DNA of 58,124 nucleotides, the filler included, from Asterionella formosa (Eukaryota), in the NCBI GenBank assembly GCA_002256025.1. It is 4 parts of 4 records of this genome, joined end to end, with 100 filler letters (N's around TTAATTAATTAA, not from the genome) between each part and the next. Parts side by side here need not be neighbours in the genome. Positions count along the whole stretch, not along the records: positions 43,699 to 58,124 come from NKIB01005997.1; 3 more parts are not named here. One strand, given 5' to 3'. Shown here piece by piece: positions 1,255-55,100 of this stretch. The position numbers were made by a program, and so were the translations under genes. Each line of letters begins with the position of its first letter. The first letter of the stretch is position 1. Below the pieces are notes generated by a model. That model worked only from the letters and a program-made list of their open reading frames with translations, was not told the DNA's origin and made no database searches.

Positions 1255-1600
1255 TGTGTCAGAAGATTTTGGTGATGATGCAAGCGCAAAAAGCATAAAT
1301 CATGCATAACAGGTAAAGCAATACGAAAAGAATTTCTGTTGTAGTGGAAATGGAGTAAAAAATGGGAAGGTACAGATAGAAAATTATGCACTGCTGTAAG
1401 CCACCGCTTTGCAACAATCTTCATGACTTTATCAAGATTTGATCTTCATGGATCAATACACTAAATCAAAACTGATAACTTATTTGTTGTTGAGTAGAGT
1501 GCATCGTCTAACATACTAAGGTTTCGATTGATAAATTACTTAAATATTTTTAGTCAGGAGATGGAGTAAAATAATGATGACTTAAAATTTTTAACTGGTA
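1255..1600 (+). mobile_element. Right-end remnant of the pogo-like DNA transposon family seen at 49849-51925
   Basis: 1255-1420 aligns by eye with 51745-51925, including CTGTAAGCCACCGC at 1394. TTAAAATTTTTAACTGGTA (1582-1600) matches the reverse complement of 49847-49865 at 16/19. Confidence 0.6.
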
Positions 1601-8540: not shown

Positions 8541-8616
8541 TACTACCAGGTACCAGGTGACGAAGATTATTTTAGCTAACCTGGTACCCATTACCAGGTA
8601 CCTGGTACCAGGTACT
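8541..8616. repeat. Cluster of TACC(A/T)GGTA palindromic units
   Basis: TACCAGGTACCAGGTG...ACCTGGTACCCATTACCAGGTACCTGGTACCAGGTAC. Confidence 0.85.
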
Positions 8617-14030: not shown

Positions 14031-14126
14031 GTGGTACTGGTACCTGGTAGACTACCAGGTCCGGTGACCAATGATGAACCTGATACCAGTGCCAGGAGTA
14101 CCGGTACTGGTACCAGGTACCTGGTA
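14031..14126. repeat. Cluster of TACTGGTA/TACCGGTA/TACC(A/T)GGTA units
   Basis: GTACTGGTACCTGGTA and GTACCGGTACTGGTACCAGGTACCTGGTA upstream of ALB3. Confidence 0.85.
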
Positions 14127-14473: not shown

Positions 14474-14573
14474 NNNNNNNNNNNNNNNNNNNNNNNNNNN
14501 NNNNNNNNNNNNNNNNNTTAATTAATTAANNNNNNNNNNNNNNNNNNNNNNNNNNNNNNNNNNNNNNNNNNNN
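14474..14573. other. Artificial scaffold linker
   Basis: Exactly 100 bp of N surrounding TTAATTAATTAA (stops in all six frames). Confidence 0.97.
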
Positions 14574-29047: not shown

Positions 29048-29147
29048 NNNNNNNNNNNNNNNNNNNNNNNNNNNNNNNNNNNNNNNNNNNNTTAATTAAT
29101 TAANNNNNNNNNNNNNNNNNNNNNNNNNNNNNNNNNNNNNNNNNNNN
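29048..29147. other. Artificial scaffold linker
   Basis: 100-bp N/TTAATTAATTAA/N spacer. Confidence 0.97.
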
Positions 29148-30897: not shown

Positions 30898-31389
30898 ATG
30901 AAACAAAGCAGCTATGTAGCTATGGTTAAATGGTATGTTGATGCGGCGTTTGCAGTACACAAAGATTTTAAAAGTCACACAGGAGCTACAATGTCACTTG
31001 AGAACGGAATTATTTGTTCTATGTCTACGAAGCAGAAAGTGAACACTAGAAGTTCTACTGAAGCAGAATTGGCTGGTGTCAATGACATTATATCAAAGGT
31101 GTTGTAAACGAAATTATTTATTGAAGCACAAGGACATAAGGTGACTACGAATGTCATTTACCGTGACAACACTAGCGCAATGAAGCTAGAAGCAAATGGA
31201 AAAGCAAGTTCAGGAAAACGTATGCGACATTTCAACATCAAGCATTTTTATATTACTTATCTTATTGAAAGAAAGGAAGTACAGATTAAGTACTGTCCAT
31301 CGGATGCAATGTTAGCAGACTACATGACGAAACCGCTGGTTGGAACGAAATTTATTCCTTTTCGTCAGCAAATTATGAATTCAAAGTGA
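30898..31389 (+). pseudogene. Ty1/copia RNase H remnant
   Basis: WYVDAAFAVH..FKSHTG, SSTEAEL, DNTSA, RHFNIKHFY, LADYMTKPL. In-frame TAA at 31105. RT domain absent upstream. Confidence 0.92.
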
Positions 31390-31411
31390 GCATCCATGTC
31401 CAGCAGGAGTG

Positions 31412-31740
31412 TGTTGGAGAAATTATTTTAGGAAAGAAAATCCCGGTATAAATTACCTACTACATGTTGAATCGAATGAATCAAGAAAGAATATGGTACC
31501 AGAGAATTCGAAAACAATCTACGCCAATAGTAAAACCCATAATTCTATTAAAACTCTTAGGAACGATTACAATCGATTACGGACATCGTTGTTCATATCT
31601 ACAGCCTATTTGGTCCCTGACGTGTCCTTACAGGATACAAGAAAGCATAGAGTGCTTCGGGACGCAATTTCAACAGTTGTCACATTGTATGGGGCGATGC
31701 TATGTGATGCTGCGATTTCAATCTGATCTCTTTGCCAACA
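31412..31740 (+). mobile_element. 3' LTR of copia element (329 bp)
   Basis: TGTTGG...CCAACA inverted termini, preceded by purine-rich AGCAGGAGTG just after the RNase H stop. Confidence 0.8.
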
Positions 31741-43598: not shown

Positions 43599-43698
43599 NN
43601 NNNNNNNNNNNNNNNNNNNNNNNNNNNNNNNNNNNNNNNNNNTTAATTAATTAANNNNNNNNNNNNNNNNNNNNNNNNNNNNNNNNNNNNNNNNNNNN
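43599..43698. other. Artificial scaffold linker
   Basis: 100-bp N/TTAATTAATTAA/N spacer. Confidence 0.97.
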
Positions 43699-45191
43699 TA
43701 CCGGTAGGTACTGCTACATTTGTTTTATACCGGAAATCTCTTCCAACTAGACCTACTGCCTCCCTCTGTCCAATATTAATAAGTTGCATCGATAATTCAA
43801 ATTTATCCGGGGCCTTTTGGAATCCTACGATTTTCTCTGTATCAATTGCCCTACCGGTATTGTGTGGTTTGCATTTATAATATATACCGGTTTGTAGTAA
43901 TTTTAAAATTGGCAATTATTCACAATCTTGAGCTTGCTAATGGGCAAGCTGGAGTTATTTAGTAATTGCAATAAAGATACAACCACGATTTCACACCCAT
44001 CGCTGCGCAATGGACTTCGATTTCATGTTCGTCATGAATATATGCAACGACGACAACAACAAGATTATGGATGCATGAGTACATAAAGTTTATCCATATG
44101 TATGTTTTTTATATAGAACATTTCACTTAAGCTAAAATTATGTTGTACTGGTAGATAAGATGGCTACCCAATGTACACGGTAGTGTCTAGATGCATCAAG
44201 ACATAGAACCACGGCAACTTGTGTTCAATCATGGAAGAATGCGCAACCCAAAGTAGTGATTATGGAAGGAGGAAAACGACAGCATGCTCGTTTCGAGAAT
44301 TGTAATACCCCAATTATTTGAGTGGCCAGAAAATATAAAACAGGATTTGGCGATATCTAGATGTGGTAAGTAATGCTATATGTATGTTCAATTGGCTTCG
44401 AATAAATTAATGAGATGCTAATAAATGCTAATAATTTAATTATAGAAACAGAGCACATGTTCACGTCTATGTAACTCATTAGTAAAAACGCATTTTTCGA
44501 GCACGCCGACCCTCACGTCGAAAGTTGGTATGTTGACCACGTAATCCTTCACACGCAAACAGTAAAGACAATGCCGGCAGTGGTGCCGGCGATTTGAGGC
44601 AATTGTTTTCGTCCAGAGGAAGTTCCTGGTACCTGGTACATGGTTCCGTAAATGTTGCACACAGTGCAGGACTTTTGTCATGAGCTCCTATGATATAAAA
44701 CTGAAACGCGGGAAATATTTTATTCCTGGTCAAATCCATCAATCGAAATTATAATATAAATTGATGCTACAAAACGTCATATTGTCAGTTTACATCAGGA
44801 AGAGTCGACAGGGCACCCCGTTCCCGAACACATGGACGATTTATTTTTTAGGTGTGTTTATTTCCTGTTAATTAAGTGGCATGTTAAATTTTTTTGTATG
44901 CAGGATCCACCAAACAGTATGTTCCCAGATATTTGATAGAACCTGGTATCAGATACCGGTAGATGTTCATTGTTTGTACTTGCTACCAGGTACCAGTAGC
45001 AAATTAAATGTCCAACTTGGTATCGAAATCTCTCATGCATTTTTATCTCGGTCATCCGTCGATCATTGGAACCATCTTTGCGCGGTCATACTTTGAAATT
45101 ACCTAAGTATAATCCCAGAAATCATTCTATTGGTTCGGTTCAAATTGGCAAGTGGACGGTTGCTTAAATACATATCATAAATGTATACAGG

Positions 45192-46876
45192 ATGGAAGTC
45201 TTCATGCATTATTCATTCCCATTATACAATTATACCGTCTCGAGTAAGAGATGCAGACAACTCGACACAACAATGCAGACAATTCAAGTACCGAAGTACG
45301 GTATGTTTTCTACTGATTTCGGTGTAGACATCGAATTTATGTATAAACAATCCAGCATTCATAAAATAATGTCGTCGTTTGTAAAACTTAAAACATCCTG
45401 TATAAAACGAATCCGACAAGATTTGAAAGCAACGCCATACCTTGGAAAGATGGCCCTGAATAAAATGACTTCAGAAGAAATCATCTTGAGCTCTGGGGAT
45501 TCCAATCAAAAGTCTAAGAAAGGTCTATCCAACGGTGAGAGCAACAGGTCGTCTCATTTATCTTTCCCCCATCACAATCCCGATGATCCTAACGCAGCCG
45601 CCATAGTTGGAGCAGAGCTGAAAAACGATTTGAAATTTGATAGAAAAAAGTGTGAGAACAGGAAAGGTGAAGGCGCATTCATCCTTAAAGACTACAGCCA
45701 AATGCTACCCGCTAATGGAAATACTGCCGGAATATCAAACATGATAGTCCAAAAGCTTCCGGTCAAGCTCGTTGCCATTCTAAATGATCAAGCCAGCCAG
45801 GACATAGTCTCATGGCTGCCTCACGGTCGGGCGTGGAAGATTCAAAATACTTATCTCTTCGTTAATCAAGTGCTTCCCAACTATTTTGACAAACCAAACT
45901 ATAACTCGTTCATCAGATTGACCAATGCATGGGGATTTCGACGCATTACAAGGGGTGTTGATAAGGATGCATACTATCATGAAGTGAGTCTCATTGCAGC
46001 TATGTTTTATAAAGAATTAATCGATCGGATTCGTAACTTATATACTCACTCGTTGTTTAGCTGTTTCTTCGAGGCCTACCGCACCTTCATTCCCGGATGC
46101 GTAGGTTGACTCCAAACGACACGAAGACTCCAGTGGCGCCCGAGGACGAGCCCGACTTCAACAAGATGGGTGAGGTTCGACCATTTCCTTCTGACCTGTC
46201 TCGAACTCCTTTGCGGACCGATGTTCCTCCCTCTCTTCTCCCGCAACCACAACAGGGAAGTGGAAACATCGATGTGCCATTATTACGGCAACAAGGTTTG
46301 TTAGGCTATTCGACAGATCCGACGAGCCAATTGTCTAATTTACTTGGAATTGCTCCATCATCGGGTCCACTTCCATTTAATCTGAGTGTCAGGCAATTTC
46401 CTGGAATATTGGGATTTCCGATGAATTCTGTGGGTGGCTATTTGGATGATGGTGTACTTCGATCTGTTGCAACAACGAGTCGCGAGAATCAGACCGACTA
46501 TTCTCCGACACTGGGACACTTTAATAGTATCGAAAGGCGAAACGTCGAGCTGGCCTTAAATCTACAGGAGATTCATTTGCAAATTGAGCATCTGAGAGAA
46601 CGAGAAAGGCGATATGATCTGGCTTCGTCGTTGGCCCCTCCCGACCATGGCCTTTCTACTCGATTCGAAATGCCAGGGCTTCTATCATCTGCGCCAGGTT
46701 TGTCCATTCCGGGATACAGTTCAGCAATGCAGATTTTGAGAGAATATGACGCTCAAATGCGCGAAGCAATTATCATGCAAGGTAGACGTCGAGCAGCCCA
46801 TAACATGGTCCGGACAGTCCATAAAGCCAATCTAGACGGGGATAAGACGAAGTATAAGATGCCCAGGAAATACTAA
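45192..46876 (+). CDS. HSF-type transcription factor, 2 exons (intron 45984-46060); true start uncertain
   Basis: KLPVKL...IVSWLPHGRAWKI...SFIRLTNAWGFRRI..G.D..AYYHE joined by a 77-bp GTGAGT...TTTAG intron to LFLRGLPHLHSRMRR...EPDF. Confidence 0.92.
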
Positions 46877-47810: not shown

Positions 47811-48809
47811 TTAGCAAAGAACTTCTTTCTTCATAACCACCGTCACTTCATCACATTTTCTGGAGAACCATGCTCGATAGGGCACAGTCAATAGCATCCC
47901 AGTAAACATCCAATAGATTGCCATTCGAACGATTCCAGTGGGAGCATTGTATATTGTTCGCACGGCCAACATTTTCGGCAAGAATCTCGCAAATTCCAAT
48001 GACGTTGATGTATCCAGGAAAAAATCTCGGTTCCTTTCTTGATTTAAAAATAGGGATTGTTGATTAAAATAGCTGAGATAAGTGTCGTCATCGGCAAATG
48101 CTAACAGTTTAACGAAAGTGACTTTGACAAAGGGTCTTAAAGGATTGTACTGTAGACAACCAATGAGCTCATCAATTGACGTGGTATCTCTCCAATTTTT
48201 AAAGCGAAACAATTGTCTCGCTCGATGCGTGACGATCTTTTCATTTTCGAGTGTTCGTTTGGATGAATGGTACAATCTCCTGTAGTGGTAACACTCGAGA
48301 TCCCACCAAGCCGACGGCGCCTGTGCTCTCACTGTATCCACTTGTTTCATGACCTTGGACGGTTCTGACATGTTGGATATATATCTCCGAGTACTGCAAA
48401 AATATGCCTCTAGATAGTAGAAGCCCAGAACTACAGAAAAGAGAGTCCATGCGTTCCTGGAAGGTTCGAAAATTAGTGCATTGAACAAGGTCCCGACAAC
48501 CAGTATCGTCAACACCGTTGCCTTGATATGTGTGACGGTCGCTCGCTGACCATTATGTGAGTGTTGACCGGAAACAACAGTGGGATAAAGATCCTTTTGA
48601 AACTCAACAATTCTGACAGGCCCATCGTTAGGTCCTAGCAGCCCGAATTGCCTGTTGAGAGGATTTAATGGCGAATGAGGGTTGATTGGCACTGATTTCG
48701 AGTGTGACGTCGAATCAGCAGCAGCTGATATCAAAAACAGGGAAAATAGAAGTCTCACCCAATGTTTTGAGAGCTGATGGAACGATCGGAGGTGATTTCG
48801 GAACGCCAT
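47811..48809 (-). CDS. TMEM151-family membrane protein
   Basis: YYLEAYFCSTRRY, APSAWWDLECYHY, KIVTH.A, W.D, and C-terminal YW.F..MLLTVPYRAW...KK. Confidence 0.8.
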   Translation of the reverse strand: MAFRNHLRSFHQLSKHWVRLLFSLFLISAAADSTSHSKSVPINPHSPLNPLNRQFGLLGPNDGPVRIVEFQKDLYPTVVSGQHSHNGQRATVTHIKATVLTILVVGTLFNALIFEPSRNAWTLFSVVLGFYYLEAYFCSTRRYISNMSEPSKVMKQVDTVRAQAPSAWWDLECYHYRRLYHSSKRTLENEKIVTHRARQLFRFKNWRDTTSIDELIGCLQYNPLRPFVKVTFVKLLAFADDDTYLSYFNQQSLFLNQERNRDFFLDTSTSLEFARFLPKMLAVRTIYNAPTGIVRMAIYWMFTGMLLTVPYRAWFSRKCDEVTVVMKKEVLC

Positions 48810-49046
48810 AATCTGCTAGGTTGCGGGGATAAACGATAAGTTATTGCACATCAACGGTGCTGTTTGATGTCGAATCCGACTTCAGGATGGTCATCCCGCC
48901 TGGCTGATCGAGACATAACAATTACTCCGACAGATGTGTGCTGAGTGAGGCATCAGCTCGAGATGATCTGAAGGGGGGGGGGGGTTGAAATACCGAGTCT
49001 CATATCATCGGTACCGGTAGCCTTTTTCGGATACCGGTACCTGGCA

Positions 49047-49839
49047 CCAGTAAAAAACTGCCATGACCCATTGAGTTAGGGTGTTTGTTTGACTCCTCCG
49101 ACTAATGGTAAATTCTACCGAATTGCGGATCCGTTTGTTCGATACCGGTAGTGTCAGAGCAGCATCGATCAATCAAGCTGTCGTGTTAGAATTCTGATTG
49201 AACGATTTCATCAGAAGATACGATGATAATAAAACTGCTAAAAAGTGATTTCAATGGGTCACGGCAGTATATGGTTTTTTTCTTCATATTCGAATATAAA
49301 TTAATATACATTTTCGAGGACGGATTAGGTCATGTATTAAAGCACTTGTCATGCGTGTTATTAGAAAGGTGCGATGAAAACCTGGTATGTACTCCCTACC
49401 TGTTATACCCGTGGTCATGCATTACGCATTTGCATGATGATGCCGTGCGCCTAAATAATTTGCCATCTCCGTAGAAGTCAATAACAAGACAAGAAATACT
49501 ATATTGTCGCAAATAAGGTGAAGGCTCAAATCAATATCGAAATTTTTAAATACATCGTCGTATTTCATATGATGCAGTGACTTCTAAACTTACCCTAATC
49601 CGTGTTCTTCATGGTTTTTCGGTTGATCGACCATTTCAGGCAATCTAGTATCGAGATGAATAACTTGCTCCAAATCTCAAACTAATTACATGGCTGACTA
49701 GCCTATATGCTCGGGAAGGAGCCAGAACTCTCAAAATCTATATTTATTTTAGTTTTGATTGCAAAACGTGTTATTCTGTGTTCAATGGGTCACGGCAGTT
49801 CAAAAATATTCTCAATGGGTCATGGCAGTTTTTTACTGG
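49047..49839. mobile_element. MITE / non-autonomous DNA transposon, 793 bp, 29-bp perfect TIRs
   Basis: CCAGTAAAAAACTGCCATGACCCATTGAG (49047-49075) is the exact reverse complement of 49811-49839. Flanks are CA and TA. Internal TCAATGGGTCACGGCAGT copies at 49251 and 49782. Confidence 0.9.
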
Positions 49840-49848
49840 TACCAGGTA

Positions 49849-51925
49849 CCACTTAAAAACTGTAACCCACCGCTCCGGCGACTTTTGAACTGTAAGCCAC
49901 CGCTATATGGAGTAAACGAACGGTTTGAACTTAGTTTACAAGATACGCTATTTATTGTCACGAACGAGTTGTTCAGATTTATATAGCGAGTAAATACTTC
50001 CGTACTTGTATTGTTGCATTGTGTACATTGTTAATTAGGTATTATCGCCCAAAGGTTGCTGTTGACGTGAAATTGCGAAAATTGGATATTTTCAAAGTTA
50101 CTTGATTGAGCAATATCACCTTTTATATGCGTATACATATATAAAAATATTCCTCCGCTAGAAAACTAATTAGTATCCTCTAAAATTTATTTAATATGGC
50201 TACGACGTCATTGCGCTTTCGCTTGTGCGCCATAATAAAGAGATAAATTCAGTAATGGAAAACGTCAAATAGGAATTCCTGGCGCGCCCGAATTATGAGT
50301 ACAACAATTAAATGCAAACACAACAATCACTCATCACCCATCACAATACCAACATCATGACCTCGAAAGCGCCTCGACAAGGCAATGCCTTGCCTCGAAA
50401 GAAATTGTCTCCTGAAGAGTTGGTCAGTTTTCAGATTTGTCTTAACAATGTGATTAGGGAGCTAGAAGCTTGGCCTAGATCCGTTTGCTGCTTGGGAAGG
50501 AGAAGATGAAAACATACATGGCAACAGCGGAAAGGGAAAACGATATCCACAAGGACCAGTCTGTGATGTGGAAGGGAAACAAATGCCTACATACTGCTGT
50601 GTGTCGGAAAATGGCTCAATCACTGCAGAGCTTCTGGTTGGCATGCTAAAGCACATGGATGACTCTTGCATCTTTCCTCGAAACAACGGGCCCCCACCAT
50701 TCCTAATACTTGATGGACATGGGTCTCGATTTGACATTTTGTTCCTTGAATACATAAGCAACCCAGTACACAAGTAGACAGTCTGTATTGGTGTTCCTTA
50801 TGGTACAAGCTACTGGCAGGTTGGAGACAGTAGTGAGCAAAACGGTTGTTTCAAAATGAACATCACAAAAGCAAAACGCAAATTGCTCACCCTAAAAGCA
50901 GATCACAGGCCAGAGCTTACAATTAGCAAGGTCGACATTGTTGGACTGGTGAATACGGCATGGGACAATTCCTTTGCAAATATTGCCACAAACTAGAAAG
51001 CAATTTATGAACGAGGATGGTATCCCCTGAACTATAATGTCTTGCTTCACCCTGAGATTCAACTAACCCAACCACAACAGAACATCAATGATCCCACAGA
51101 GACTGCCACTCTCTCCCCTGATGAGTTAGACCTCCATTCTTGCTTTGCTTGAACAATTGTTGGAAGAATTAACGAGTTTTGCAAACACGAGGATTTGCGA
51201 AATGGAATCGACCGGGAGGCCCAAGCTAGAAAGAGATAGGAGACAGCGGATTCACACAAGAAGAGGATAACAGCAGGACTACTGGCCTCTGCACAAACCT
51301 TTGCCCTTGGGCCAAATATTCTTTCTGCTACACTGGAACGGAAGCGATTTCAGACATTGTCATTAGTACAAAAGAAGAAAAAAGGGAACAAGAATTCAAT
51401 ACACTTTGCGGAAAAGTAATTACATTGAAGGAACAGAACAAAAAAAGAACAGATGTCTGTGCCAGAATTGAAATTAATGGTGGGTTGGTACAAATGATCA
51501 GGTGATTTGCCGGTTCCACAAAGAAGGCAAGCTCTGATTACAAGATTCGACGACACCAATCACCATGTGACCAGCAGCCGCCATTCCCTCTCCATACGAT
51601 TCCTATTGCTGTGGTTGTTGTTACTGCACTCCTCCTGTTGCTATTCTCTCTCCTTCTACAACTGCTTCTGCCGATCCACCATTCCGTGATGAAGTTTGAG
51701 ACTCTGCAAGCAAGTAATTGGATGCAAAGAAGCTCGAGATTAATGTAATGCATCAGAAGAATTCTTCAACAATGATGCTGCCCTGCAAAAGTGTAAAACG
51801 TAAAGTAATAAGAAAATAATTTTTGTAGTATTAACGGAGTAAAAAAAACGGTTTGGGGGTAAAATATATACATGTACAGATAAAAAAATATGCACTGTAA
51901 GCCACCGCCGCTATGCAATAATCTT
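49849..51925 (+). mobile_element. Degenerate pogo/Tc5-like (DDE_1) DNA transposon, internally deleted, right TIR missing
   Basis: TA|CCACTTAAAAACTGTAACCCACCGC left end; CTGTAA(C/G)CCACCGC at 49860, 49890 and 51895. Broken ORF contains SENGSITAELL, FLILDGHGSRF and GVPYGTSYWQVGDSSEQNGCFK. Confidence 0.8.
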
Positions 51926-52135
51926 AGTTGGCAAGAAAAGACTAATTTTGGCGACTTCAGGAAATTCCATGTATTTCCTGAAATTTCCTTACGCATTTCC
52001 TTACGTTTCCTGACAGTTCCTGAAGTTTCCTTAAGTTTTCCTGAAAGTCCTATGCGTTTCCTGAAAGTCATAGTATTTTCCTGAAATTTATAGGAATTTT
52101 CTGAAAGTCATAATGCTTCCTGAATGTCATAGTCA
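51926..52135. repeat. TTTCCTGAAA-motif-rich dispersed repeat
   Basis: About 12 TTTCCT(G/T)A units; same family as 1750-2006. Confidence 0.7.
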
Positions 52136-55100
52136 TATGCTGGGTGTTCTCGTTTTGCAATTAGAAGAATTCCGCTATATATTTCGCTGAATCGTGCTAT
52201 GAATAGAAGATGTTCTTTATACTTTATAAAATATGTCGATGTCCAGTGATATGTTGTCCGTTTCAGGAAAATGACCGCTGGTTGAAGGTAAAACAACGAG
52301 ATGCGGTCATTTTGCTTAAATAAACAATTCGATATGCGATAAAAACAGCTAAATCCTTGGTTCAGCAAAATTACCGCAACTTGCTGGAAGGTCCGGTAAT
52401 CAGCGCACATACCGTGCAGGTTGCTCGTTTTATGTTCATCGATTCATGTACGAGAAAAAGGAAGGGGTATACCCCAAAAATTGTCGAACCCCTAAATTTT
52501 GAAGATTACCGGAGCTTCCTGGATTGACACTTATAGGTATATCTGTAGTTGAGCAAGATCGCTCACTCTCCCACACCAAGGAAAACCTTTCACCTATGAA
52601 AAGGTTTGATATGACAAATATTAATTCAATCAGTAGTAGGTACAGTTCAGTGATATCATATAGTTTCAACATTGCACCATTCAACTTTCCGGGTTAGTAT
52701 CCCCGCCCTCTTTAATTCCCTAGTACTAAGCCTACGTGGGCAGTTTGTAGCGCTGCTGGTGACACCCTCCTCATTCACCATGTCCTCTTTGGACCACACT
52801 GCCGCTCCATTTGCTTACTCCTCCTCCACTTTTATTCACACTTAAATTGGTCTGTTAGACCTGCCGGTCAATCCACAGTAAAAATCATTCAAATCCGCCC
52901 ATTCTAGCCTGAGAAAACCAATTTCGCCTACGTTGCACACCACTTCTCACAGCGATTTCTTCACGCAAATCCTTTTTCCTCCACCCATGACCTTCCTATC
53001 TCTCTCTCCCACTTCCAACTCTCTCATATTCACCTGGAAGACCAGCCTCAGTAGTAGACCCTCCGGAAATCCCAAGGAACTGCTTTCCATTGCTGCCGCG
53101 ACCCACACTTTTTGCCATCGCTCAGGCACCAAAGGCAGCAGGAATAACACTTTTTCCTCTGATCTTGCTGCTTCATCGGAAATTGCGACTCCTAATAAGC
53201 CATCAGATCCATCATTCCATCAAGTACTTCAAATTTACTTATTGTCTAAGTCTGTCCCCTCTCCAATTTCAGTTGATTACACCTCAGAACAAGTCGATGC
53301 CAGCACTATCAAGACCTCTCGCTCTTCAAGCAATAATATACATCCATCCCTGCATTTCTTCTATCCTATTTATCACCCCCCAAAAAATACTGCTTTCACA
53401 AGCTTCAAGAATTTCTTCCGCTTTCAATCCGCCCATTTTGACTGCTGCATTTTATTTATCTGAATTTTGACACCTTCTTATCAATTTACCATCCACAGCT
53501 TCCATGCTATTCTTCTATATCTCTCTCTTGCTTCCTTCTGACACCACGCATCAAATATCTACTCAAGTTTTCTCAAACCCTGCTTCAAAGCTGTTTGTCA
53601 GCTTCTGTTTTCCATTCTATCACCTACTTGCTNNNNNNNNNNNNNNNNNNNNNNNNNNNNNNNNNNNNNNNNNNNNNNNNNNNNNNNNNNNNNNNNNNNN
53701 NNNNNNNNNNNNNNNNNNNNNNNNNNNNNNNNNNNNNNNNNNNNNNNNNNNNNNNNNNNNNNNNNNNNNNNNNNNNNNNNNNNNNNNNNNNNNNNNNNNN
53801 NNNNNNNNNNNNNNNNNNNNNNNNNNNNNNNNNNNNNNNNNNNNNNNNNNNNNNNNNNNNNNNNNNNNNNNNNNNNNNNNNNNNNNNNNNNNNNNNNNNN
53901 NNNNNNNNNNNNNNNNNNNNNNNNNNNNNNNNNNNNNNNNNNNNNNNNNNNNNNNNNNNNNNNNNNNNNNNNNNNNNNNNNNNNNNNNNNNNNNNNNNNN
54001 NNNNNNNNNNNNNNNNNNNNNNNNNNNNNNNNNNNNNNNNNNNNNNNNNNNNNNNNNNNNNNNNNNNNNNNNNNNNNNNNNNNNNNNNNNNNNNNNNNNN
54101 NNNNNNNNNNNNNNNNNNNNNNNNNNNNNNNNNNNNNNNNNNNNNNNNNNNNNNNNNNNNNNNNNNNNNNNNNNNNNNNNNNNNNNNNNNNNNNNNNNNN
54201 NNNNNNNNNNNNNNCAAATGTGCAAACTGTTCAGCATTTGGCTGGTATTTGTTAGGCAGATAGGTCACTAGCTGACCAACAGGAGGGTTCATTATGGCCA
54301 CTAAAATTTCCTGGGAAGAATCATAAAAGTTGGCATGTATAGCCCTTGGCACAGTACCCTAACCAGAAATACCCCTAGAGCACAATACCACAAGAAAACC
54401 ACTAGCTAGCAATGGTGTTAAATCAATCAGCTTAACAACAATGGTGGTGCTTTTCTTGGTAGCATTGATGATCTGATGGATCTGTAGGTCATTTGTAGGT
54501 GATTCCAATTCAGTGGCAATTCCAAAAGTTGAGCTTTTAACAATCCATCGGAGAAAATCATTTCACCACTCCACAATCATCGCTACACCTGTCCATAGAA
54601 CCATCTGTTTGGTGCTTCTCGTGCCCCTGTTGATCTGTTGATTGTAGCATTGTTGAAACCTGCCAATTGGTTGCTCTACTGGTTGCCAATGTCCGCATTG
54701 ACAAAAACATTTCTCCAATTTCTTGCAAATTAACCCATTCCCGATATCATTGCTTGTTATCTCTGCTTTCGCGGGAAAGAGGAGGTATGAAAATGGATAA
54801 GTGGTGAGTGAGATTCTGGTGGGCAAAGATGTGCGACAATATCCAGTCTGCTGGTCGTCACTCACTTTTGGGACTGTCTTGATGCTTGTTTCTTCAGCGC
54901 CAATATCTTTTCTTTACCTTTTGAGCGATCCTCAGCAATCAAGTCCAACAACTCATTGAATACCACAACATCACTGACAATATCTTGCCAAGGATCGTCA
55001 GTAGAATCACTCTGGAAGGATAGCAAGGAGGACAAGGAGGCCTTGGCAGATGAGTGAACGATTGTTGATTGCAATTGTACTGGTTTTATGTATAGATGAA

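Follow-up and report, generated by a model that had tools for sequence, protein, structure and literature searches.

Are the short TA-flanked palindromes that crowd this locus of Asterionella formosa the excision scars of the DNA transposons that sit among them? The window (the whole stretch of DNA analyzed, 58,124 nucleotides from a 68.4-Mb assembly) consists of several contigs joined by N44-TTAATTAATTAA-N44 linkers at 14474-14573, 29048-29147, and 43599-43698, and the flanks of a linker are not real neighbors. Its DNA also occurs in lake and algal metagenomes. Features given here without a sign have no strand assigned. A MITE of 793 bp, M1, occupies 49047..49839 and has 29-bp TIRs beginning CCAG. 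To its left are the array TA-CCGG-TA-CCTGG-CA (49032..49046), in which the left TA duplicate reads CA, and a lone TA-CCGG-TA unit (49012..49019). On its right, a TA-CCAGG-TA spacer (49840..49848), likely a footprint unit, separates it from P1 (49849..51928, plus strand), a pogo-like copy with the left TIR CCACTTAAAAACTG, an internal deletion, and a transposase remnant. A preliminary description had stated that the array directly precedes the MITE and that the spacer is all that lies between M1 and the start of P1 at 49849; we confirmed both. It had also placed a third end, TTTTTAACTGG|TA, at 1588-1600. This end is present and closes the degenerate right terminus of a P1 relative (1375..1600, plus strand; 72 to 80% identity), but it does not lie directly within an array. 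Elsewhere, a four-unit mixed array (CCGG, CTGG, CCAGG, CCTGG) without an element lies at 14099..14126, and a three-unit array (CCAGG, CCTGG, CCAGG) lies at 8592..8614. The array, M1, and P1 begin ~200 bp upstream of the first ATG of a TMEM151-like ORF (47814..48809, minus strand; PF14857, E = 7e-11). An HSF-type DNA-binding ORF at 45168-46876 is convergent with the TMEM151-like ORF, and an array cluster at 44630-44998 lies upstream of it. We consider it quite probable that excision of M1 and P1 leaves TA-CCAGG/CCTGG-TA, which rebuilds GGTACC twice and grows mixed arrays, mostly upstream of predicted genes.

The units are far more numerous than expected. In the window, TA-CCGG-TA occurred 23 times versus 0.96 expected and TA-CCWGG-TA 18 times versus 0.61 (third-order Markov model). 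In a genome sample of 600 kb (nine long contigs other than the window's), we found 306 TA-CCGG-TA versus 15.0 expected, 270 TA-CCWGG-TA versus 8.8, 156 TA-CCAG/CTGG-TA versus 34.1, 237 TA-GC-TA versus 86.1, 150 CAG/CTG units versus 79, and 24 CCSGG units versus 3.5. No other words of the genome seem as over-represented as these units, and extrapolation from the long contigs gives ~30,000 per type. Long ORFs hold 2.6 to 6.4% of CC-type units versus 26% of all TA.

We characterized the elements and their relatives. M1 is multicopy (40 of 290 candidates scored) and derives by deletion from L250, a 3.5-kb element that bears a transposase and shares its TIRs. Its TIR is CCAGTAAAAAACTGCCATGACCCATTGAG; with flanks, the two ends form a 40-nt inverted pair (98%). 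It has the features of a MITE, being short and noncoding, with TIRs, a target site duplication, many copies, and a longer parent that shares its ends. Another repeat, at 30926-31676 of the window, is a 93% match to sequence flanking the parent. Full-length P1 is ~3.8 kb; its two 26-bp TIRs are identical, and its family includes near-identical young copies. The window P1 is a dead copy: it lacks 1.5 kb of its interior as well as its right TIR, and it contains stop codons. Part of a family R repeat ending ...AACTTGCTGG follows (51928..52387, plus strand). Family R, which has CCAG/CCTG-type ends and TTTCCTGAAA repeats and often lies beside P1-like ends, was also found at 1650-2130 and in L085, L200, and L214. 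A 50-residue piece of the transposase had 114 matches in the genome. Among the 20 that we examined, 4 had clear TA|CCA ends (L236, L240, L245, and L250), and G preceded TA at every flanked end. TIRs surround the transposase ORF in these four and in L320 and L321, whose open frames are 747 and 964 codons long. Relatives from other metagenomes mostly keep the TA|CCA ends; some distant ones carry CCG instead. Three distant members of this DD37D clade from other metagenomes (L369, L379, and L380) end in CCGG or CCGA, not CCA; they offer a natural test of the end-to-scar code.

The preliminary description had the elements duplicating TA and ending in CCA...TGG. With the flanks tabulated, exact P1 ends genome-wide read G-TA-CCAC in 164 cases, H-TA-CCAC in 23, and TA-D-CAC in 2. 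TA was intact at 24 of the 29 listed M1 ends, preceded by G at all 24 and by GG at 21, and family R ends with an intact TA likewise favor GG-TA. The same description offered an alternative, a GTAC target with CAG/CTG footprints; in such a reading, elements ending in CAG/CAC would duplicate 4-bp GTAC or 3-bp TAC. Indeed, 164 of 189 P1 ends read GTAC, and most single sites suit both readings. However, a longer duplication expects similar variant rates on both sides of TA, and a 4-bp one predicts equal numbers of H-TA-CCAC and TA-D-CAC; we found 23 variants outside TA and 2 inside (P = 2e-5). We rejected this alternative, to which we give hardly any credence. The imbalance argues that TA is the duplication and CC the element end, with GTAC being only a target preference. 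Judged from their flanks, these cut-and-paste elements sit mostly at GTAC, usually GGTACC.

The named homologs of the transposase come from a diatom. The catalytic residues D230, D379, and D417 are kept in 56, 55, and 55 of 56 homologs, and the DD37D spacing is found in 51 of the 54 scored. In structure comparisons, the predicted model (pLDDT 85.5) scored highest with Mos1 (Z = 13.0), Metnase (12.8), and Sleeping Beauty (11.7), versus at most 9.3 for integrases. The Mos1 catalytic domain aligned at an rmsd of 3.1 (190 aligned), and the N-terminal helical bundles of the model align with Mos1 from residue 68; the best Foldseek E value was only 7.5e-3. PDB sequence searches and Pfam scans with the transposase returned nothing relevant. 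DDE_1 was absent among the 25 listed of 45 Pfam families matched by the 56 homologs at E ≤ 1, and a Pfam scan gave no DDE_1 match in four clade ORFs or L321. CENP-B_N, HTH_Tnp_Tc5, and HTH_psq likewise had no Pfam match in the clade ORFs or homologs scanned. Single-sequence profile comparisons of the transposase with DDE_1 proteins were not significant, and a DDE_3 search of the genome (an incomplete assembly) gave 0 matches. A profile-profile comparison with this genome's DDE_1 proteins gave a collinear alignment over 215 columns that is weak (E = 0.0099, probability of 4%). The TA duplication, the TIRs around the ORF, the DDD triad, and the mariner-type predicted fold together argue for placing the M1/P1 clade in the ITm (IS630-Tc1-mariner) group.

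We compared the clade with the pogo superfamily (Fot-like, pogoR, Lemi, and Mover) by published criteria (PMC7386202, PMC7325037). Both have a TA duplication and short TIRs; the clade's size of 2.9 to 3.8 kb is inside the superfamily's 1.2 to 5.2 kb, and its triad is within DD29-59D (PMC7386202). Its motifs are also collinear with DDE_1 proteins in the same genome. In contrast to the superfamily, the 56 homologs gave no DDE_1, HTH_Tnp_Tc5, or CENP-B_N match, and the clade has a largely constant DD37D and a strong GGTACC preference. The P1 clade works like pogo, but membership is not established, given the lack of a DDE_1 match and the weak collinear alignment. What emerges is a DD37D transposase clade that lacks an annotation and prefers a 6-bp target.

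Enzymes of the Tc1/mariner type cut in a staggered manner and leave 2 to 3 terminal bases on the donor, which is sealed by end-joining (bioRxiv 10.1101/659086, PMC2874221, PMC4378557). For the elements studied here, we infer that the transposase leaves both flanks with 3' overhangs that consist of 3 nt of terminal sequence. CCA overhangs could not pair, so that end-joining with a 1-nt overlap would give CCWGG and with a 2-nt overlap CCAG/CTGG. According to this model, the CCG overhangs of separate DDE_1 pogo families would pair through CG to give CCGG, CAG ends would pair around a mismatch to give Sleeping Beauty-type CAG/CTG, and a CCC-ended variant (L323) would give CCSGG. Overhangs of 4 nt on CCAG-ended families would give CCWGG too. 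GG-TA-CC would become GG-TA-CCWGG-TA-CC, and therefore each cycle would double the preferred target; repeated insertion and excision would then build mixed-orientation arrays where elements land. Excision is the likely event behind the paralog and population alleles described below, from which it is read rather than directly seen. Counting against the mechanism, the ratio of ~30,000 units per type to ~190 exact P1 ends would require a very large number of hops in the past. Ordinarily, footprints occur as rare traces.

We looked for other footprints in the 600-kb sample. TA-CCAC-TA, the whole-end 4-nt P1 footprint, was not enriched (17 versus 24.9 expected) and had an empty paralog in 0 of 44 cases; we rejected this candidate. 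The full CCATGG footprint was not enriched either (1 versus 1.9 expected), and TA-CATG-TA, expected from the CAT-ended family S, was outside the top enriched words, with 22 copies.

If CCWGG units are footprints of these elements, they should share the flanks of the element ends. We found that 64% of CCWGG units are at GTAC positions, versus 11% of CCGG units and a background of 8%; for isolated CCWGG units, the count was 36 of 80. The frequencies of G at the first and second bases before TA are 0.79 and 0.66 for CCWGG units, 0.93 and 0.75 for P1 (57 ends), and 0.95 and 0.86 for M1 (21 ends), versus 0.26 and 0.23 for all TA. The CCWGG units thus share the GG-TA-CC context of the element ends. 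This context and 17 non-duplication rows with an empty paralog (see below) support a footprint origin of CCAGG/CCTGG. The preliminary description had derived the whole motif set from CCA ends. This is supported for CCAGG and CCTGG but not for CCGG, with its 11% at GTAC.

CCGG units appear to have another source. Canonical DDE_1 elements had 93 matches in the genome, and their ends read TA|CAG or, in families T and T2, TA|CCG. End patterns, which cover part of the ends, matched 222 times for T and 61 times for T2. The base before TA in the CCG-ended families was A in 42 cases, C in 45, G in 42, and T in 15, counted by eye over 100 and 61 listed rows, minus 10 and 7 without a plain TA. This spectrum fits CCGG units (P = 0.12) but fits neither all TA (P = 6e-5) nor CCWGG units (P = 2e-53). 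TA-CCGG-TA, the commonest palindrome, thus likely comes from CCG-ended DDE_1 pogo families and not from M1/P1. Six of eight new CCGG units have T or A beside TA on the side where family T rarely does, and therefore more sources beyond family T may exist. Family T (with a 640-bp MITE) and family T2 (with near-identical copies) are represented at L039:779-1419 and in L306, L307, and L304. About 8% of family T ends read TA-C-CCGT.

Next to these contexts stand natural alleles with and without a unit. We polarized 242 insertions in repeat copies against other copies of the same repeat. Among the 21 insertions of 6 bp, 8 changed TA to TA-CCGG-TA and 2 changed TA to TA-CCAG-TA, and none was copied from the flank. 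The 10 insertions of 7 bp included one CCTGG and one CCGGG. A TA-CCGG-TA unit was gained within the window M1 copy itself (49143..49150), where other copies have TA alone; the unit is absent in 23 of 29 aligned copies (the window copy is L031). Empty paralogs were found for 26 of 624 CCGG units, with 25 non-duplication rows (a few reflecting one inherited event), and for 76 of 671 CCWGG units, with the 17 non-duplication rows falling at ~10 sites. Only two or three clean CCWGG gains lie outside arrays. Control words had empty paralogs in 0 of 8, 0 of 20, and 0 of 49 cases, the last being TA-CATG-TA.

Family S (2.2 to 2.4 kb, with CATCTAAGCCGC TIRs; L148:297-2494 and L167:704-3134) contains two hypervariable arrays in its interior, and these serve as insertion hotspots. 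One of them has mixed units that number between one and at least six depending on the copy, and different copies hold M1 in either orientation or a P1 or R element. Several copies were found through these elements, and the state counts therefore give no rate. Reinsertion at array TAs, as the preliminary description had supposed, is supported. The search for empty, filled, and scarred alleles that it had proposed succeeded in part: all three states were seen among family S paralogs, but no orthologous site was both filled and scarred. More generally, elements are associated with arrays, as it had claimed: CCWGG-TA adjoins 61 of 187 P1 ends, versus 1.1% of TA and 10.5% of GTAC half-sites. Since 28% of GG-TAC half-sites already adjoin CCWG, the plain GGTACC preference may suffice for much of this association, without a special affinity for scars.

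We compared four lake metagenomes over a 10-kb stretch with 36 units and found 12 indels, 6 of them of at least 5 bp. Four of these six add or remove one TA-X unit, the direction being unpolarized. A CCGG unit is missing from one X6 contig (depth of 5), a CTG unit is missing from X1 (depth of 157), a CTGG unit is on a single contig (depth of 2.6), and a CCTGG unit is a duplication-like gain; three of the four alleles depend, in part or in full, on contigs of low depth (2.6 to 6x). At the MITE's own contig, where repeats swamp the comparison, the four metagenomes gave no readable empty allele, and one X3 contig runs into the MITE. A joint of 49849 to 52472 (30 letters a side) occurs in the lake data and is not assignable to the window locus. 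Alleles with TA versus TA-unit-TA, in paralogs and in lakes, include ones that are not tandem duplications.

The units concentrate near the 5' ends of ORFs, as the preliminary description had it. We compared 500 bp upstream and downstream of 89 to 90 nonrepeat ORFs of at least 300 codons, with ORF starts as a rough stand-in for transcription starts. The upstream-to-downstream counts were 105:6 for CCWGG (14-fold per TA) and 115:14 for CCGG (6.6-fold), versus 53:36 (1.2-fold) for control AA/TT units. Elements lay 5' rather than 3' of the neighboring ORF in 33 of 44 cases (33:11), and 104 ends had no ORF within 1.5 kb. Elements share the 5' lean, and the bias of the units is thus explained by where elements insert; any regulatory effect is putative.

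These results bear on other origins of the units. Could replication slippage or unequal exchange, starting from a few seeds, account for most array growth, with the elements only exploiting the arrays as targets? The homogeneous runs in L153, L255, and L280 fit such growth, as do runs of three to four identical units in general, and 59 of 76 CCWGG gains are indistinguishable from tandem duplication; because of these gains, slippage probably contributes some units to arrays that already exist. As the main source, however, it is improbable. It cannot produce the rows that are not duplications (25 for CCGG and 17 for CCWGG), and it leaves unexplained the 519 single units among 630 arrays of the 600-kb sample. 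It also predicts near-uniform orientation, while neighboring units were the same or alternating in a ratio of 33:26 (P = 0.43) and, in a second set, 75:56 (P = 0.12). The slight same-orientation excess of the second set leans toward slippage, but orientation is close to independent, nearly random. Hairpin correction, which predicts mostly alternating neighbors, runs against the same counts.

Selection presents a different possibility: units would be transcription factor or chromatin sites that arose by point mutation and were selected in promoters, with the elements sharing their sequence by coincidence. The strong 5' enrichment is what this predicts, and TACCGGTA and TACATGTA are predicted promoter motifs of Phytophthora infestans (PMC3597505). 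We regard it as very improbable, since units arise as one-step 6- to 7-bp insertions with TA duplication, even inside transposons, and the elements have the same 5' bias. Later co-option of units as regulatory sites may nonetheless occur. Unit words also contain restriction and methylase recognition sites, as restriction-site-like junctions from the assembly or library would. To such an artifact we assign next to no chance: independent lake contigs match across unit-rich stretches, and the independent contigs L320 and L321 show P1 flanked by the same arrays. We thus return to excision footprints as the preferred origin of the CCWGG units.

Excision footprints are already known for ITm elements, and natural ones have been reported for the pogo-type MITE Emigrant (PMC1636448). 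As in Sleeping Beauty and Tc1/mariner systems, the TA duplication and terminal bases would remain here through end-joining (bioRxiv 10.1101/659086, PMC4378557, PMC2874221). Sleeping Beauty likewise has two footprint variants that differ at a central A/T, and its short variants TACTA, TAGTA, TACGTA, and TACATA occur as new insertions here too. In contrast, pairing of its CAG overhang around a mismatch gives a 5-bp gain, whereas the CCA overhang would be unpairable and add 7 bp; moreover, the scar here is the preferred target, and the units are natural sequence found genome-wide. The Emigrant MITE and its longer parent Lemi1 of Arabidopsis resemble M1 and its parent, also in their subterminal repeats, which correspond to the inner half of the TIR, and extra bases derived from the TIR at natural empty sites were read as footprints there; that account reports two footprints and, in the text consulted, does not mention arrays or target regeneration (PMC1636448). 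The P. infestans motifs M93 (TACATGTA) and M94 (TACCGGTA) are the same TA-N4-TA palindrome, are abundant in promoters, and were interpreted as factor-binding sites in a main text without the word transposon (PMC3597505). Our literature search, which was light on subscription papers, found no publication on such arrays or on the clade in diatoms; related elements of stramenopiles may be listed in Table S1 of PMC7386202. To the known systems, this locus adds a generator clade, a test of the duplication, an end-to-unit code with a separate source of CCGG, and natural alleles.

The match of end, target, and scar offers an uncomplicated way for insertion hotspots and arrays to arise. The units still vary between lake populations; if the footprint origin is true, cut-and-paste hopping would rank as a major cause of promoter mutation, also once the elements are gone. 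There is a caution here as well: palindromic "promoter motifs" that abound in algae and oomycetes may be scars. A wider proposal, which we hold to be possible but rather unlikely, is that a self-target scar loop wrote tens of thousands of promoter palindromes that are now working cis-regulatory sequence, with TACCGGTA and TACATGTA in other stramenopiles having the same origin.

TA to TA-GC-TA was a frequent new insertion, with 11 non-duplication cases among 63 polarized insertions of 4 bp (for example, L005:2507, L157:2653, and L173:1148; genome sample L176-L235), and we found no source element for it. Fourteen TA-C-TA/TA-G-TA gains resemble short Sleeping Beauty-type footprints. Finally, a 12-bp gain in L084 extends a CCGG unit on both sides into a longer palindrome that is perfect, which suggests occasional template switching.
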